From Pseudolabrys sp. (lineage in GTDB: Bacteria > Pseudomonadota > Alphaproteobacteria > Rhizobiales > Xanthobacteraceae): a DNA stretch of 43,114 bases. The stretch lies in contig JAQSCR010000221.1 of the NCBI GenBank assembly GCA_029945495.1, positions 1 through 43,114 on the forward strand. The letters are read 5' to 3'. Both the position numbers and the translations under genes were made by a program. How positions within the stretch are numbered: the stretch's first letter is position 1; every line of letters starts with the position of its first letter. Below, piece by piece: positions 18,666 to 26,244 of this stretch. The notes under the pieces are model-generated. The model had not been told where the DNA came from. It saw only the letters and a program-made list of their open reading frames with translations, and searched no databases.

Positions 18666-19379
18666 ATGCCCCAGCCAATTCTTGCCTCGGTCAACTCCGC
18701 CCCGGATCGCCCTCTTTCCGCTCAATGGGTGCACGATATCCGAAATGCTCTTGCCGTTACGGGGCTGCATCTTGAAGCTCTTGAGCGCCTATCGGGTCCG
18801 AAAGGCCAAAAGGCCGCCAGTGCCGCCCATGCCGTGATGACCCGGGTTGCCGGCATGTGTAGCGCCTCTTTGGCCGAGGCCACGCGAATGGACCATGTGG
18901 CGCCGCGTCGGGGCTTCGATCTCATGCAGACGATCAATGAGATCGTCACAATCCTGGCGCCGATTGTGCCCGAGGGATTTGAAATACGCATCCCGCAGGA
19001 CGGCAGTTGCATGGTGCTGGCCAACCCGGGCGACATTTACCGTATCATGTTCAACTTGGTGCAGAACGCCATCGCGGTGGCGCGCAGCGGTGCCCGCATG
19101 AGCCATGTCGGCATCGGCTTGGCGCGAAATGGATCGACGGTTGCCATAAGGATATTCGACGACGGCCCCGGCCTCCCGGAAGCGATCCGCTCGAATATCT
19201 TCCGGCTTCATAACGCGTCCACTGCCGGCGGCAGCGGCCTGGGCATCGCGATTGCGCGCGAACTTGCAGAGCGCAACGGCGGCACATTGCGGCTCTCCGC
19301 CGCTGCGAAAGGTGCTAGCTACATTCTAGAGCTGGCCCATTTACGTGTCGTCGCCCGCGAAGGAAGTCGCGGATCATGA
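18666..19379 (+). CDS. Cytoplasmic histidine kinase lacking a sensor domain
   Basis: H-box VHDIRNAL, N-box FNLVQNA, G1 DDGPGLP, G2 GSGLGIAIAREL; about 20 aa precede the H-box. Confidence 0.85.
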   Translation: MPQPILASVNSAPDRPLSAQWVHDIRNALAVTGLHLEALERLSGPKGQKAASAAHAVMTRVAGMCSASLAEATRMDHVAPRRGFDLMQTINEIVTILAPIVPEGFEIRIPQDGSCMVLANPGDIYRIMFNLVQNAIAVARSGARMSHVGIGLARNGSTVAIRIFDDGPGLPEAIRSNIFRLHNASTAGGSGLGIAIARELAERNGGTLRLSAAAKGASYILELAHLRVVAREGSRGS

Positions 19380-19479
19380 CCTCGCAACACGCATGCGGAG
19401 GATCATCCGCAACTCACACGGCTCGTGTGTATCCTTACGAAAAACATTCCGCCATGGTCCCGACAGCGGCGCCCTATCG

Positions 19480-19737
19480 GAACTGACATCAAGCTTATCG
19501 GATGCGGTGCGCGAGCAACCGGACTTCAAGCCGGATGTGGAGGACATGCCAGTGATGAACGTGCTTCACCGCGACGGTGGGGCGATCCGTCATCTCTGGA
19601 GTTCGGAAATCCTTTACGTGCCGGCCGAGCCCGGCCAAGAATACCGCCACAACGACGCCAACGATACGCTCTGGAATATGATCGACCTCACTCCCGAGGG
19701 GCGCGGAGACTTTCACCCAAAGCTAACCTACGTCTAG
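19480..19737 (+). pseudogene. C-terminal fragment of a DUF899 (thioredoxin-like) protein
   Basis: MPVMNVLHRDGGAIRHLWSSEILY...RHND...LWNMIDLTPEGRGDFHPKLTY; N-terminal half missing. Confidence 0.7.
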
Positions 19738-19764: not shown

Positions 19765-19822
19765 CGTAATTTCCGCATATGCACTTAGCGGACAATCGCG
19801 GCACTGCGATAATTTGGCGGCT
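19765..19822. repeat. Left half of the dispersed hairpin repeat interrupted by the IS110 element
   Basis: gcacttagcggacaatcgcggcactgcgataatttggcggCT joins to atcggagtaaagctgacat (21264 onward); the joined sequence resembles the uninterrupted copy at about 21987-22016. Confidence 0.65.
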
Positions 19823-19849
19823 TCTCTAATCGGCCGGTTGGGGTCAAGC

Positions 19850-20045
19850 GCTTTCAGACTATCCACCACTGCAGTGTCGATGTCGCCCGCGGGCTCGTGC
19901 TTCTCTTCGGAATCGGCACCAAGGCCCTTCCATTATGGGATTCGAAGACGAGGCAGAACAACCTATTGGGCGGCCTTACCGTCAGAGTGACGGTGGGTCC
20001 AAGCGACCAAACGAACTCACCTCATCCATCGTCCCGCGAGGGACA
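19850..20045 (-). ncRNA. Predicted bridge RNA / seekRNA of the IS1111-type element (ends approximate)
   Basis: Two stem/internal-loop modules; loop segments match target (20002-20011, 19963-19969) and donor junction (19900-19906, 19879-19882). Confidence 0.75.
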
Positions 20046-20105
20046 TCATTCCACCGCTCGGTGGAGCTCAAGTTTTCTCCTATCGCATTTGATCCTGCAC
20101 GGCTC

Positions 20106-21140
20106 TCATGCCGCTGCTGCTTCTTCCCGGGTCCAGCGGAACTCGGTGCCGTCAACCCATATGCGGTGCATGATTACGGCCAGCCGACGCGCCAGTGCCA
20201 CGATCGCCTTCTTCACTCCGCGACGCCTGGCGATCTGCATCGCCCAGGCCTTGAGCCAGGACCACTTGTTGGTGCGGGTCAACATGACTTGGGCTGCTCC
20301 GTAGAGCATGGCCCGCATCATCTCGTCTCCGCAGCGTGATATTCTGCCGCTCCAATCACTCTCACCCGATTGATGCTTGGAGCACGTCAGTCCCAACACA
20401 GCCCCGACCGCCTTGGAGTTGTGAAAGCGGGTGGGCACGTCGATGGTGGCACGATAGGTCAGCGCCACCACTGGGCCGACGCCGGGGACCGTCATCAGGC
20501 GCCGGCACACCTCATCGTCCCGCACGATGGCCAGCAGGCGGCGGTGCAGGATGCCAATCTGCTCGCGAAGCACTCGCCGGACAACCAGCATCGGTTCGAC
20601 CAGAACGGCCAAGTCGGGCAAGTTCTCGACAAGCTCTTTGATGCGTGCCTCGAACTTTACCGTCCCGACCATTCCAACCTTGAGGCCGAAGTTACGCAAA
20701 GTGCCGCGCAGGTCGTTGTCTATAGCGATGGCCTTGGACAGCAGCAGTTTGCGATGGGTCAGCAACATTCGCAGCTTCTGGCTACGTAAGGTCTTCACAT
20801 GCACCGGGCGATAAAGACCCGCCCGCATCATCTGCGCCATGCCACGGGCATCGTTGCGATCCGTCTTGTTGATCTGGGCCTTCAGTACCGCCCTCATATG
20901 CCGCGTCTCGACACAGATCACCGGCAAGCCGGCTTCGGCCAGAGCGCTGAACAGCCACTGCGATAATGGGCCAGCTTCCAGTCCGATCCGTTTGAAGTGG
21001 TATGTGGGGTTCGCCAGCACCTGCAGCAGAGCTTCAGGTTCGCTTGCCACCTTTACTTCTCGTGCGATCTTGCCTGTGTCATCCACAATGCAGACGCTGG
21101 TCTCCTTGACCGATACGTCCAAACCAGCAAAATGGTCCAT
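20106..21140 (-). CDS. IS110-family transposase/recombinase
   Basis: GLDVS, GLEAG, KTDRNDA (DEDD); LMTVPGVGP; HQSGE catalytic Ser motif; GRISRCGD; AIVALARRLA. Confidence 0.96.
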   Translation of the reverse strand: MDHFAGLDVSVKETSVCIVDDTGKIAREVKVASEPEALLQVLANPTYHFKRIGLEAGPLSQWLFSALAEAGLPVICVETRHMRAVLKAQINKTDRNDARGMAQMMRAGLYRPVHVKTLRSQKLRMLLTHRKLLLSKAIAIDNDLRGTLRNFGLKVGMVGTVKFEARIKELVENLPDLAVLVEPMLVVRRVLREQIGILHRRLLAIVRDDEVCRRLMTVPGVGPVVALTYRATIDVPTRFHNSKAVGAVLGLTCSKHQSGESDWSGRISRCGDEMMRAMLYGAAQVMLTRTNKWSWLKAWAMQIARRRGVKKAIVALARRLAVIMHRIWVDGTEFRWTREEAAAA

Positions 21141-21261
21141 GCTGCGCTTCTCCTTCTGATGCTTGAGGCCGTGTCAACAACGGACCTCGTTTCCACCATC
21201 AGCCTGAAGCGCAGCACCCTAAATCTTCAGCTATCCACAAGCTGCCGGCCGATTACCCCAT

Positions 21262-21330
21262 CTATCGGAGTAAAGCTGACATCGGTCTCCTTGGGCGCGG
21301 AAAAGGTCGCTCGTGGTTGAACCAAAAGCG
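21262..21330. repeat. Right half of the dispersed hairpin repeat interrupted by the IS110 element
   Basis: CTatcggagtaaagctgacatcgg followed by gtggttgaaccaaaagcg, compare gattgacccaaagcg near 7441. Confidence 0.55.
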
Positions 21331-21654: not shown

Positions 21655-21732
21655 GGGCATTTGCTAGGCCATGGCATGATTTTTTTCCCGGCGGTTACGG
21701 CCTCGGTGAAGGATTTGCCAATGTTCGCTTAT

Positions 21733-21959
21733 GGCCGATATTGTTGCAAAAGTCCCAAACGGCGAGGTGACAAATTTTCCGCCGAGGGACAAAACAAGCT
21801 GAGATCGCCAATTGATATGGCCTCACACTCGTTACCGAAGTCGGTTATGAGTTTATCGCCATGCGATGAGGTCCCTCATATCTTCACTTGAACGCCGCGT
21901 CTAAAACCCGGAATTCTTGCGAGCAAAGATGAAAAATGACTTTTGCAACAATATCGGCC
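21733..21959. mobile_element. MITE with perfect terminal inverted repeats
   Basis: GGCCGATATTGTTGCAAAAGTC (21733-21754) is the exact reverse complement of 21938-21959; the outer GGCC may be the duplicated target; no transposase inside. Confidence 0.85.
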
Positions 21960-22020
21960 CATAGCTACTATTCGCGGCAACGCAGGAATTCGGTTGCTAT
22001 CGGCGCGAAGCGGACTCGCG
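21956..22020. repeat. Copy of the dispersed hairpin repeat, split at its 5' end by the MITE
   Basis: ggcccatagctactattcgcggcaacgcaggaattcggttgCTatcggcgcgaagcggact aligns with the rebuilt IS110 empty site; joins to aatgttcgcttat (21720-21732). Confidence 0.65.
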
Positions 22021-22054: not shown

Positions 22055-22292
22055 CGCACTCGGCAGCCTGGACCGTGTGAAGGACGTCGTGAAGGTTTTG
22101 GGAATGGTCAACGCGACTCCCAATTTTGCCCAGCATCCCCAGGTGATAAATGGCTGCTCCGATCTTTTCATAGAAATATTTGGAGAACGCGGACGTCACG
22201 CCAGGTCGGGCGTTGGTATGGGCTCATTGCCGAATGGCATTCCGGTTGAAATCGAGGTTATCGTGGCGGTGTTTCCGTCGAATTCGAAATGA
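22055..22292 (+). pseudogene. C-terminal fragment of a RidA/YjgF-family protein
   Basis: ALGSLDRVKDVVKVLGMVNATPNFAQHPQVINGCSDLFIEIFGERGRHARSGVGMGSLPNGIPVEIE; 5' half missing. Confidence 0.8.
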
Positions 22293-22853: not shown

Positions 22854-25800
22854 TTACATATCAATTTCAACGACCCCACCGGCTTCGGCCGCACGCGATT
22901 GACATAGGATTATTGAAGTTTCCCGTTGGCGCTTTGACAATACGAAGTCGCGGTGGTCGACCGTTCCGGATATCAAATTGCACTTACAGACACCGCAAAT
23001 CCCATCCGAGCATTTTACGTCAATGTGAATGCCGTTTTCACTGAGCGCGTCCGTCGCGCTTTTGTCCGCAGGAACCAGAATTTCCTTGCCCGATCGCGCC
23101 AGCTTCAACGTGAACTCATGGTTCACATAGTCCGGCAGCTCGGGCACCGAGAAATATTCCAGATGGCGAGCCTCCTCGGGGAATCCTTGGCGTGTCGCCG
23201 CTTCAATGACACCATTCATGTAACGATCGGGGCCGCAGGTGTAGACGTGCCAGCCGCCCTGATAATTCTCCATAATCTTGGCCAGATCGGCCCGGCTGCC
23301 GTCTGCGGTAAAATGCAGGCGAACGCGGTCGTGCCACGGTGCGGCGGCGAGGTCCGCCAGATATCCGGCGTCGTCGCGAGATTTGCACGAGTAGTGCAAT
23401 TCGAAATCGGCGCCGATGGCGTGCAGCCTATGGGCGAAGGCGACCATCGGGGTAACGCCGATTCCGCCGCCCATCAAGAATGTTTTCGTCGCCGATTCCT
23501 CGAGCGGAAAATGGTTGATCGGCTTTGAAATAAAGACGCGCCGTCCCTCTGAAAAAATACGGTGCATCAATTTCGAACCGCCGCGCCCGGCATCCTCGCG
23601 CAGCACACCGATCTGATATTTACTGCGGTCCGCCGGGTCGCCGGACATCGAATATTGCCGCATGTATTCTGGCGCGATGACGATGTCGAGATGAGCGCCA
23701 GCAGTCCATTCCGGCAACGGCGCACCGTCGAGCGTCGTGAATTCATACTTGGTGACGTCGGATGTCATCGCTTCGGCCTTTTTGACCATGACGCGAATGA
23801 CCGGCGCATCCCCCGGCACCGTGTAGCGATGCACATGGCTGGCATCGCCGCGGGCCAGTCGAGCCTTGTATTCGTCGGCAGATATCATGGCCTGATAGGC
23901 CTCGATGCCCTTCTCGCGGTCCATTTGGAACGGATAGGGCCAGGGAGGCGGCGCCAGCGGCGCCGGATACACAGCCAAGGTCTGGTCTTCGTATTTCAGA
24001 TTGAGGTTTTTCGACAGCGGTCGCCGATTAACCGGATTTCGGGTCGGTTTGTAGGCGCCGTCGTCCTGCAATTCGATGTCCCACCACCACTTCTTGACAT
24101 CGTTGAGTCCGCCATTGCCGGCCATGTCGTCGAGTTTAGCGAGCAGAGGAGCCGCCTTAGGAATGTTCATTGCAGCCCAGCGGAACGGCGCCTCCGCAAA
24201 CAGGCCCTCAAGATTCCACGGACAGGTCTTCATGCAGCGACCGCACATCGCGCCACCGGGCGTCGTAATGCGGTAGGTTGCACATTTTTGGCTGTCCGAC
24301 TTCCAAATTTCATAGCCGTTGAACATCCGCTTCGGGCCAGCAGTGATCGCGCCCGACGGACATTCCCTCGCGCACTTGTTGCAACTTTCGCAAAAGCTCT
24401 GCAGACCGAAGTCAATCGGCTTATCATGTGCCACCGGCATGTCCGTCGTGACGACGCCAGACTTGAGACGCGGCCCGAGATAGGGATTGAGGATGACCTC
24501 TCCGATCCGCGAGACTTCGCCCAGACCAGCGAGCAACAGCAACGGCGGCTGCAACACTTCGCCATCCATTACGGTATGAGCCTTGGCTTTATAGCCGAGA
24601 TTGCGGATCTGTTTGGCAATGACGCCTCCCAGCAGAGAGAATCGCAGATACGCGCGCATTGATTGCGCAACGGCGATCCAGTCGTCGCCGCTGGAGCCCG
24701 CCATTGTTTCAAAGCCCTGGTCGATGATCATGCTGATGGCCTGATCATGCGGCGGCTCGATCGGGTCGCCGGCCGCGTCATGCGAATACCAGGTCCACTT
24801 CGGGCACCGCGAGACGCCGACCGCGTCGACTCCCAAGAAATAGGTTGCGGCTTTGATGTGATTAGCCGCCGCTTCGGGCGTCATGACAGCACGTTCGGGC
24901 TTCGATCCACCATCCTGGATCAGGACGAATGCGCCCAGCACGCGGCGCTGGGCGAATGACGGAGCAGCCTTGCGTGCGTAGTGCCCGCCCTTGGCGCCGG
25001 CCTGATTGGCCTTGCCCATGTCGCCGAACTGCGCGCGGGCAAACATATCGGTACGCTTTGGAACGCGGGCGACGTTCGCCTTGTCGATAAACGTTGTCGG
25101 CTCATCTTTGCGTTTCAATATCTCGAAAGGATGCGCCCCGTCCACGTAGCGCCGGCCAGAATATGGATCCTGATTCATCGCATTCTTGGCGAATCCCATC
25201 CCGACCCACCAGGCTGGGCCTTTGGTCTTGAACCAGGGCTGCTCGGCAAGCGGCGCCAACGGCCTGTCGATAGCCATATCAAATGTGGTGGTGACCACGG
25301 CGACACCGAAGCGGGCGCCGACGTAGGGGTTGACTAACCGGCCGTCCTCGACGGTCGCGAGTCCGGCGGCGACGGTCAGCTTGTTCAAGTCAACATCTGA
25401 CGAAGAGCCCGAGTGCGCTTTGGCGTCGTGTCCGAGCAGCCGAATATAGTTCGCAATGACCACCGCAGTTTCGGTCGCTCTCAAGCAGGCGCGGTGAGCC
25501 TGCGCGTCCTCGATCCAATCGGCGCCGGGCTCGTCGGGATTCGGATCGCGGTAATACTCATAAAGGAAGACGATGGCGTGGGTATGCCCGTCAATCGTAG
25601 ATGGCGGAGCCTCCATTGATTCCTTTAGATCGGCCATGATCATGTCGATGCCTGAGGCCAATGTCTTGGTCTGGCGCGTGCGCAGATAGCGTGCCAATCG
25701 ATCGATATCGGGATTACGGTAGGGCTCGCTCAGGATCGCTCTGTCCGGCAGCCGGCAAACCCCCGCCATCGCGGCATCCGAGAAATAGCCAAATGCCTTC

Positions 25801-26066
25801 AGGTGATCGGCACGTTCCTGCGGATCTTCCGGGCATTCGGCGCGGGCTTTGTTCACCAAGCCGTCGCGGATCGCATCCATCATGGCCTGATGTTCGGCCA
25901 TCGCGTTCACGATACTCTCCGGCTTGTCAGGTCGCCGAAAGTCGAGCTGCCGATATGCCGGAACTTTCGCGAGGTCCGGCATGACGCCGTTGCGCAGAAG
26001 CCTTTCCTGCGGATACCCGCCCATATGAACGGGTCGGTTATTATCGGAGAAAAATCGGATGCCCAT
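22854..26066 (-). CDS. rdhA: Self-sufficient catabolic reductive dehalogenase (BhbA type): cobalamin/2x[4Fe-4S] domain fused to flavin/NAD(P)H reductase and [2Fe-2S] ferredoxin
   Basis: LLLAGLGEVSRIGEVILNPYLGPRLK, FCESCNKCARECP, CATYR...CGRCMKTCPWN; RQYSM, GRGGS, GGIGVTP, YTCGP; CSDGICGVC...LC; duplicated N-terminal Rdh-like domain; no Tat signal; start set at MGIRFFS. Confidence 0.93.
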   Translation of the reverse strand: MGIRFFSDNNRPVHMGGYPQERLLRNGVMPDLAKVPAYRQLDFRRPDKPESIVNAMAEHQAMMDAIRDGLVNKARAECPEDPQERADHLKAFGYFSDAAMAGVCRLPDRAILSEPYRNPDIDRLARYLRTRQTKTLASGIDMIMADLKESMEAPPSTIDGHTHAIVFLYEYYRDPNPDEPGADWIEDAQAHRACLRATETAVVIANYIRLLGHDAKAHSGSSSDVDLNKLTVAAGLATVEDGRLVNPYVGARFGVAVVTTTFDMAIDRPLAPLAEQPWFKTKGPAWWVGMGFAKNAMNQDPYSGRRYVDGAHPFEILKRKDEPTTFIDKANVARVPKRTDMFARAQFGDMGKANQAGAKGGHYARKAAPSFAQRRVLGAFVLIQDGGSKPERAVMTPEAAANHIKAATYFLGVDAVGVSRCPKWTWYSHDAAGDPIEPPHDQAISMIIDQGFETMAGSSGDDWIAVAQSMRAYLRFSLLGGVIAKQIRNLGYKAKAHTVMDGEVLQPPLLLLAGLGEVSRIGEVILNPYLGPRLKSGVVTTDMPVAHDKPIDFGLQSFCESCNKCARECPSGAITAGPKRMFNGYEIWKSDSQKCATYRITTPGGAMCGRCMKTCPWNLEGLFAEAPFRWAAMNIPKAAPLLAKLDDMAGNGGLNDVKKWWWDIELQDDGAYKPTRNPVNRRPLSKNLNLKYEDQTLAVYPAPLAPPPWPYPFQMDREKGIEAYQAMISADEYKARLARGDASHVHRYTVPGDAPVIRVMVKKAEAMTSDVTKYEFTTLDGAPLPEWTAGAHLDIVIAPEYMRQYSMSGDPADRSKYQIGVLREDAGRGGSKLMHRIFSEGRRVFISKPINHFPLEESATKTFLMGGGIGVTPMVAFAHRLHAIGADFELHYSCKSRDDAGYLADLAAAPWHDRVRLHFTADGSRADLAKIMENYQGGWHVYTCGPDRYMNGVIEAATRQGFPEEARHLEYFSVPELPDYVNHEFTLKLARSGKEILVPADKSATDALSENGIHIDVKCSDGICGVCKCNLISGTVDHRDFVLSKRQRETSIILCQSRAAEAGGVVEIDM

Positions 26067-26244
26067 GAGTGCAGCCCACCTATTCAAGAAGCGGCGCCGG
26101 CCTTTTCGGCCCGTTGATCGCGGCCCGCCGAGGGCGCTCCTTGATTTCCTTCCAGCAAGGCACTCCAGCCGAAACTAAGGCGGGTGTCTTTTCATATGTG
26201 ACAACGCACCATGAATTGCTTCCAAGTGCAATATAATTAGACCA

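Follow-up and report, generated by a model that had tools for sequence, protein, structure and literature searches.

The window analysed here is a stretch of 43,114 nucleotides from an assembly of Pseudolabrys sp. (contig JAQSCR010000221.1 of GCA_029945495.1; the genome is called G000 below). It carries an insertion sequence with a transposase gene, a non-coding region behind that gene and an interrupted repeat copy whose parts lie at the two junctions (Table 1). The boundaries of the element were read from the core junctions at both ends (TTTGGCGG-CT and CT-ATCGG), and close homologues have the same ends with an AG core. Moreover, read coverage of relatives drops at both element ends. A full copy is present only once in G000.

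The recombinase matched the NF033542 model with 250 bits (cut-off 140) and possesses the DEDD RuvC-like domain and the Tnp domain with a catalytic serine that characterize the IS110 family, its catalytic residues being assigned by motif position and by alignment to the IS621 and ISCro4 chains. As is also usual for this family, a 2-bp CT/AG core with no longer target duplication was found in 72 of 72 close loci. The sub-terminal inverted repeats, 11 bp long and perfect, fall within the 7-17 bp of the IS1111 group, and the RNA region lies in the long right end (286 nt, the left end being 121 nt), as in that group. At the circle junction, the spacing between the repeats amounts to 6 + 2-bp core + 4 = 12 bp. 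This 6/4 layout excludes the IS1111 family sensu Siddiquee 2024 (extensions of 7 or 6 bp on the left and 3 bp on the right), and the element was therefore placed in the broader IS1111 group only. Judged from its sequence, it is an intact IS110-family element of the IS1111 group as broadly understood by ISfinder and Durrant 2024. In the rebuilt circle junction, GAAGAT follows the predicted -35 box by 17 nt and is a weak -10 candidate, and a promoter/terminator scan of the linear element returned a single match, on the wrong strand and at chance level.

Table 1. Features of the element, its predicted RNA and the repeat copies in the window (cells paired and two-sided changes refer to the RNA alignment)
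Feature	Position	Strand	Remarks
Whole insertion sequence	19821-21263	minus	1,443 bp, the 2-bp core (CT on plus, AG on minus) being counted twice
IS110-family DEDD recombinase, 344 aa	20106-21140	minus	PF01548 + PF02371; D8, E55, D94, D97 and S258 present
Sub-terminal inverted repeat, right end	19827-19837		11 bp; perfect complement of 21245-21255
Sub-terminal inverted repeat, left end	21245-21255		Partner 19827-19837
Predicted -35 box TTGACC	19842-19847	minus	Same arrangement in the 12 clusters printed
5' hairpin of predicted RNA	20050-20065	minus	96% of cells paired; 3/6 pairs with two-sided change
Long-range helix, 5' strand	20033-20044	minus	Pairs with 19893-19882; 96.5% paired; 4/11 pairs with two-sided change
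Long-range helix, 3' strand	19882-19893	minus	Partner 20044-20033; GCCC/GGGC 'hairpin' of the initial annotation
Target-loop base stem, 5' strand	20020-20026	minus	Partner 19953-19947; 98.5% paired; 4/7 pairs with two-sided change
Target-loop base stem, 3' strand	19947-19953	minus	Partner 20020-20026
Left target guide UUGGUCG-CU (7 nt + core)	20002-20010	minus	82-96% flank match per position
Target-loop distal hairpin	19972-20000	minus	9/11 pairs with two-sided change
Right target guide CCAAU + core complement AG + handshake GU	19961-19969	minus	Flank covariation
Donor-loop base stem UUCG (4 bp)	19943-19946	minus	Partner CGAG 19897-19894; RNAalifold columns 143-146 with 195-198
Left donor guide AUCCCAU	19935-19941	minus	Corresponds to the element's left end, one position being a wobble; unpaired in RNAalifold consensus
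Donor-loop distal hairpin	19907-19932	minus	99% paired; relatives have element B inserted at AA 19929-19928, a site unoccupied in the window
Right donor guide AGAGA + core AG + putative handshake CA	19898-19906	minus	Own right end in 33/34 clusters
Left arm of interrupted repeat copy, with core	19813-19822	plus	Junction and two-arm model
Core, loop and right arm of interrupted repeat copy	21262-21282	plus	Two-arm model
Free, weaker repeat copy	21990-22017	plus	8.0 + 6.9 bits

With regard to known elements, the only supplementary row matched by two N-terminal peptide words of the transposase was that of the ISfinder cluster ISAzs32/ISMex9/ISMno22/ISMpo4; the transposase is about 70% identical to it over the RuvC segment in a by-eye count, the row standing for the cluster representative and not necessarily for ISAzs32. 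According to a figure legend, ISAzs32 belongs to six elements for which guides were predicted, its bridge RNA having been drawn in 2024 (PMC11208160). The target of this cluster differs from that of the window element. Traces of siblings were also observed. In G000, a lone 74-bp right end of a sibling element (contig C596, 761-834; locus L094), 93% identical, has a different flank with a repeat arm and a TT core, and an 81% identical transposase fragment (contig C538, 6136-6594; L095) is interrupted by other mobile DNA. In one relative, the RNA region is found once more ahead of the element (upstream, L059:1010-1263), suggesting an insertion beside a sibling. In five of 80 loci (L009, L012, L016, L026 and L046), the right end and RNA gene are wholly or partly tandem-duplicated; some of the joints look garbled and may reflect assembly error.

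Relatives were sampled at two depths. The close set comprises the best 80 of 563 stretches (88-92% identity) from alphaproteobacterial genome assemblies; five had no right end in reach, three had long right ends and one a mis-called end, leaving 71 loci that were scored together with the window (72 in total, with 42 distinct guide pairs as the units of target covariation). Rhizobial plasmids also carry close relatives, and viral contigs contributed three partial loci. Because the element ends are invariant among close relatives, 120 further loci, most of them of 40-89% identity, were collected for the donor-guide test. Ends were called by repeat geometry alone in 56 of 121 loci (window included), nine of which were dropped as mis-registered, so that 47 elements in 34 clusters spanning 42-100% protein identity were retained.

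An initial annotation of this region had proposed an IS1111-type bridge/seek RNA 3' of the transposase, and the placement is supported, the RNA region lying between the recombinase stop codon and the right end. The segments it quoted are all present, namely GATGAGG (20026-20020), CCTCGTC (19953-19947), a hairpin (19994-19978), TTTGGTCGCT (20011-20002) and CCAATAG (19969-19963) for the target loop, and AGAGAAG (19906-19900) and CATC (19882-19879) for the donor loop. Its two target guides, for which covariation with the flanks across homologues had been suggested as a check, were confirmed by it: the left guide matched its own flank at 6.52 of 8 positions compared with 4.91 after permutation, and the right guide at 4.25 of 5 compared with 2.51, with none of 10,000 permutations as high in either case (72 loci). 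The left guide had been given as 10 nt; it is a real guide, but its first base (position -8) matches in 35% of loci only, and its length is hence 9 nt. The dinucleotide after the right guide and AG is AU in 71 of 72 close loci and GU in the window.

Pairing was counted over 73 loci once the duplicated right ends of five of them had been corrected: of 876 guide positions, 781 were Watson-Crick pairs, 16 wobbles and 79 mismatches, and guide and site differ by one deviation or less in 50 loci. The tolerance of mismatches proposed initially is supported. The window's own site deviates at three of 12 positions, which is worse than in 62 of the 73 loci and places it among the 11 worst, and of the three mismatches initially described there, one is in fact a G-U wobble.

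The target repeat, ATGTCCGCT-N9-12-AGCGGACAT, is palindromic, degenerate and low in copy number, and it also occurs in other Alphaproteobacteria. The empty sites of relatives have the consensus ATGTCCG-CT-TTTGG (68 unique sites), and an inverted arm downstream, outside the reach of the guides, was found in 30 of 68 empty sites compared with 5.9% of 5,000 random CT sites. A two-arm model built without the window detected 50 sites in G000 compared with 16 in a shuffled genome (17 and 1, respectively, at a strict setting). The window's empty site scored 12.1 + 13.5 bits in this model and would rank seventh in G000, and the free copy near 21990 mentioned in the initial annotation is present there. 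The exact palindrome occurs in eight of 151 genomes of the order (reversed control 0), and G000 is without it. Neither the guide 14-mer nor a simple hairpin count is enriched genome-wide in G000. The repeat is degenerate, as had been claimed, but to call it a host repeat was an overstatement, because it has a few dozen degenerate copies and is shared by other genomes of the order, and because the 14-mer spelled by the guides is as rare in G000 as its permuted versions or rarer. Literature searches yielded no description of this palindrome in the text covered. In excerpts of PMC3733652, REP-type families are described as short palindromes that have a GTAG or CGTC tag and many extragenic copies; the target repeat is palindromic and has a few dozen degenerate copies, and its string GTCCG does not appear in the text of that paper.

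Several observations concern the surroundings of the repeat. A second palindrome copy lies just left of the insertion site (19771-19795), forming a two-unit cluster. Inverted repeats of 38 nt, 183 nt apart and 82% complementary (21717-21975), are likely to represent a miniature element in another palindrome copy. The repeat cluster is flanked by pieces of DUF899 and RidA/YjgF (19345-19737 and 22077-22292) that match the C-terminal parts of the profiles only and are likely gene remnants.

Unconstrained RNAalifold on 29 sequences produced a consensus in which a long-range helix, with a 5' hairpin ahead of it, encloses both the target loop and the donor loop, and in which all four guides are unpaired. 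In the structure named in Table 1, 94.6% of cells are paired and 22 of 42 pairs show two-sided changes, compared with 9.6 in shuffled alignments, and slid controls are 35-45% paired; because the structure was derived from the very sequences scored, these pairing statistics lean in its favour. Both target-loop stems of the initial annotation are beyond chance according to the RNAalifold consensus and the two-sided pair changes. Contigs of relatives in four RNA runs and four other runs (eight of 24 listed) span the whole element, the strand and RNA ends not being readable from contigs, and no circle joint was listed among the relatives' contigs from those eight runs.

In the donor loop, AGAGAAG is indeed a donor guide and is identical to the right end of the element itself; it had been taken for the first guide, however, and is the second (3') one. 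The five terminal bases of the right end, together with the core, have an exact match in the RNA region of 46 of 47 elements (33 of 34 clusters), and end types of other clusters were found there six times out of 272. Nine right-end types require at least 12 changes on the transposase tree, and AAAGAAG arose three times separately; therefore, the identity of guide and end cannot be a single inherited match. Upstream of this guide (31-41 nt 5' of it), a site resembling the left end was detected, with a score of 5.93 compared with 5.22 after permutation (0 of 3,000 as high). This left donor guide, AUCCCAU in the window and overlooked in the initial annotation, precedes the second guide by 34-37 nt in 28 of 34 clusters. 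It is a poor fit (score 4-5 of 7) in nine of 34, and it does not reach the core (AA is found there in the window). An interim idea of a circularly permuted donor loop was abandoned after the upstream guide had been found.

Both loops show the same order, i.e., a guide identical to the CT strand, a hairpin, a guide complementary to the CT strand, AG and a putative handshake. A donor loop whose two guides both covary with the element ends, in the order of the target loop, is thus established at the level of sequence comparison. The core changes jointly in DNA and both loops (22 AG and six AC clusters of 28). The target-loop handshake tracks the first bases of the left end, an AT end going with AU/GU in 25 clusters and a CA end with CA/CG in three; all 28 clusters in which the guide was located fit, the variation coming from one clade (the three CA-end clusters). 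The donor-side handshake is mostly C whatever its target is, with 20 of 33 matching.

Based on these results, the stretch very probably encodes a bridge RNA and forms part of the right end of the intact IS110 element of the IS1111 group. The four guides covary with the landing site and the element ends, and the RNA would join the excised circle and the palindromic repeat at their shared CT core, as in IS621. By analogy with IS621 and ISEc11, the element would be excised to a circle, on which a junction promoter would drive transcription through the transposase into the right end; the recombinase would bind the predicted RNA, and strand exchange would be aided by the AU/GU handshake. The RNA would bring the circle and the degenerate repeat together for recombination at the core.

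As in IS621 and ISCro4, there are two loops with two guides each around a hairpin, a left target guide of 9 nt that includes the CT core as its end, a putative AU handshake, a DEDD + serine recombinase and a repeat as the natural target (PMC11208160, PMC11208158 and PMC13626964, each in excerpt). For the IS621 bridge RNA, excerpts of PMC11208158 give a 9-nt left target guide, an A81/U82 handshake and a distance of 34 nt between the starts of the left and right donor guides, which are 35 nt apart in the window element. Unlike IS621 and ISCro4, the window element has its RNA in the right end, 11-bp sub-terminal repeats, one long-range helix closing both loops and a left donor guide that stops before the core, and the proteins are distantly alike (E 2e-10). 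We take the 7-2-5 recombination site to be inverted relative to the transposase gene when compared with the IS621 ends; this would account for the 'reversed' order of guides that IS1111 seekRNAs are reported to show on the gene's strand.

Features shared with ISEc11, ISPa11, ISKpn4 and ISPst6 in excerpts of PMC11187229 include a downstream non-coding region, sub-terminal repeats and a transposase of 330-350 aa; as with the IS1111 seekRNAs described there, the target loop read on the gene's strand has its top-strand match 5' of the bottom-strand match, and ISPa11 targets a REP. The circle junction of the window element differs from theirs, with 12 bp between the repeats instead of 7+3, and donor guides are present here while none are described for these four elements in those excerpts.

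The donor loop is also an insertion site. In five of 80 close loci (L006, L019, L025, L029 and L038, from three genomes), the donor hairpin holds the end of a second IS110-family element, referred to as element B, which is 1.6-1.7 kb long, has an AA core and encodes a 393-aa transposase barely alignable with that of the window (E 0.05). A total of 110 element B loci were collected (L201-L313 among them), with a left end in 89 and sufficient flank in 84. Element B sits at the exact donor-hairpin spot in 43 of these 84, of which 30 belong to the 80 metagenome loci. The 43 have 39 distinct flanks, in a sample that favours nested relatives, the query being a nested copy and nine loci having been reached via the first element. 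Beyond element B, the RNA gene resumes in 30 of 31 loci. Where the element B guides spell the hairpin site, 31 of 35 loci sit in the hairpin, and seven loci with other guides are all elsewhere; among the 42 loci with unparsed guides, 12 are in the hairpin and 30 outside. Element B was not found in G000, and the corresponding site of the window is intact and unoccupied.

Variants of element B with other guides (L238, L245, L246, L268, L276, L289 and others) lie at a few recurrent conserved flanks resembling the non-coding parts of mobile elements. These flanks may resemble pieces of group II introns; a search of 15 such loci against Rfam gave no match. IS4321 and IS5075 reportedly insert into the inverted repeats of Tn21. 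The site of element B is of another kind than those of ISEc21 and IS4321/IS5075, being the donor loop of another element's guide-RNA gene. ISEc21, which lands in IS3 transposase genes, has in common with element B that it is site-specific within other mobile elements (PMC11187229, in excerpt). No published case of nesting in a bridge-RNA donor loop was found in the text of the literature searched.

Other readings of the RNA region were considered. The initial annotation had built the donor loop from AGAGAAG, a GCCC/GGGC hairpin and CAUC, and had concluded that the two loops engage opposite strands. Its letters are present, CATC complements the junction in the window copy, and GACATC is kept in 70 of 73 close relatives, among which the ends are also invariant, yet this layout is hardly credible any longer. 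CAUC does not covary with the left end (4.40 compared with 4.32, 641 of 3,000 permutations as high; a second downstream test gave 806 of 3,000) and CATC is kept in eight of 34 divergent clusters, while the supposed hairpin is 64% paired, with one pair kept in five of 29 rows, its bases forming one strand of the better supported long-range helix. The guide that covaries sits upstream, at the IS621 spacing; the conclusion about opposite strands arose from mistaking the second donor guide for the first, and it fails now that AUCCCAU gives both loops the IS621 order. That the segments merely resemble guides by chance can practically be dismissed: folding of the single sequence is modestly better than that of shuffles (z -1.9 to -2.1), the donor part alone is no better than shuffles and Rfam contains no match for the predicted RNA, but the covariation of target and donor guides refutes such a coincidence.

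A short processed target-loop RNA might act alone as a seekRNA, the ends being recognised mainly by the protein via the sub-terminal repeats and the donor loop being auxiliary. Short seekRNAs are the most abundant ones, and an 82-nt seekRNA with the target matches is enough for movement of ISEc11 (PMC11187229, in excerpt), by analogy with which the IS1111 donor loop may be dispensable; the perfect inverted repeats, the imperfect left donor guide and the occurrence of elements with a donor loop split by element B in several copies in one genome point in the same direction. This model is nevertheless considered unlikely, as a guide that tracks nine end types through so many changes must be selected for end pairing, and the donor hairpin is almost always paired. 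Doubtful, though a little less so, is the possibility that the repeat itself is not what the guides are directed to, and that intergenic repeats simply tolerate insertion or their hairpin opens the DNA. In G000, 140 sites differ from the guide 14-mer at three positions or fewer, while permuted guides have about 174 such sites on average, nine of the 50 repeat-like sites come that close, and 38 of 68 homologous sites have no good second arm. Against this, the consensus guide of the clade spells the left arm of the repeat and the start of its loop, and the window guide ties for the best of 38 guides on the repeat copies of its own genome, a comparison that is partly circular because the model was derived from homologous targets.

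Since the mechanism has been described before and a bridge RNA has been predicted for a close ISfinder relative, the finding as initially posed is an ordinary one. The corrected map of four guides bears on the use of a donor loop by IS1111-group elements, which is not described in the seekRNA work, and the donor loop as a recurrent insertion site of an IS110-family element with a matching guide represents a concrete conflict between RNA-guided elements. We lean slightly towards a joint reading, in which a distant IS110-family element, its guide spelling the donor hairpin, is programmed to land in the donor loop, so that one RNA-guided recombinase would parasitise, and would be expected to cripple, the guide gene of another; in which IS1111-type RNAs have retained a full donor loop of the IS621 kind, which would bring the models of seekRNA and bridge RNA together; and in which 38 natural target guides are tuned to an uncatalogued alphaproteobacterial palindrome.

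Elsewhere in the window, an open reading frame of 1,077 aa (22854-26087) shows motifs that, by eye, resemble a reductive dehalogenase fused to a reductase.
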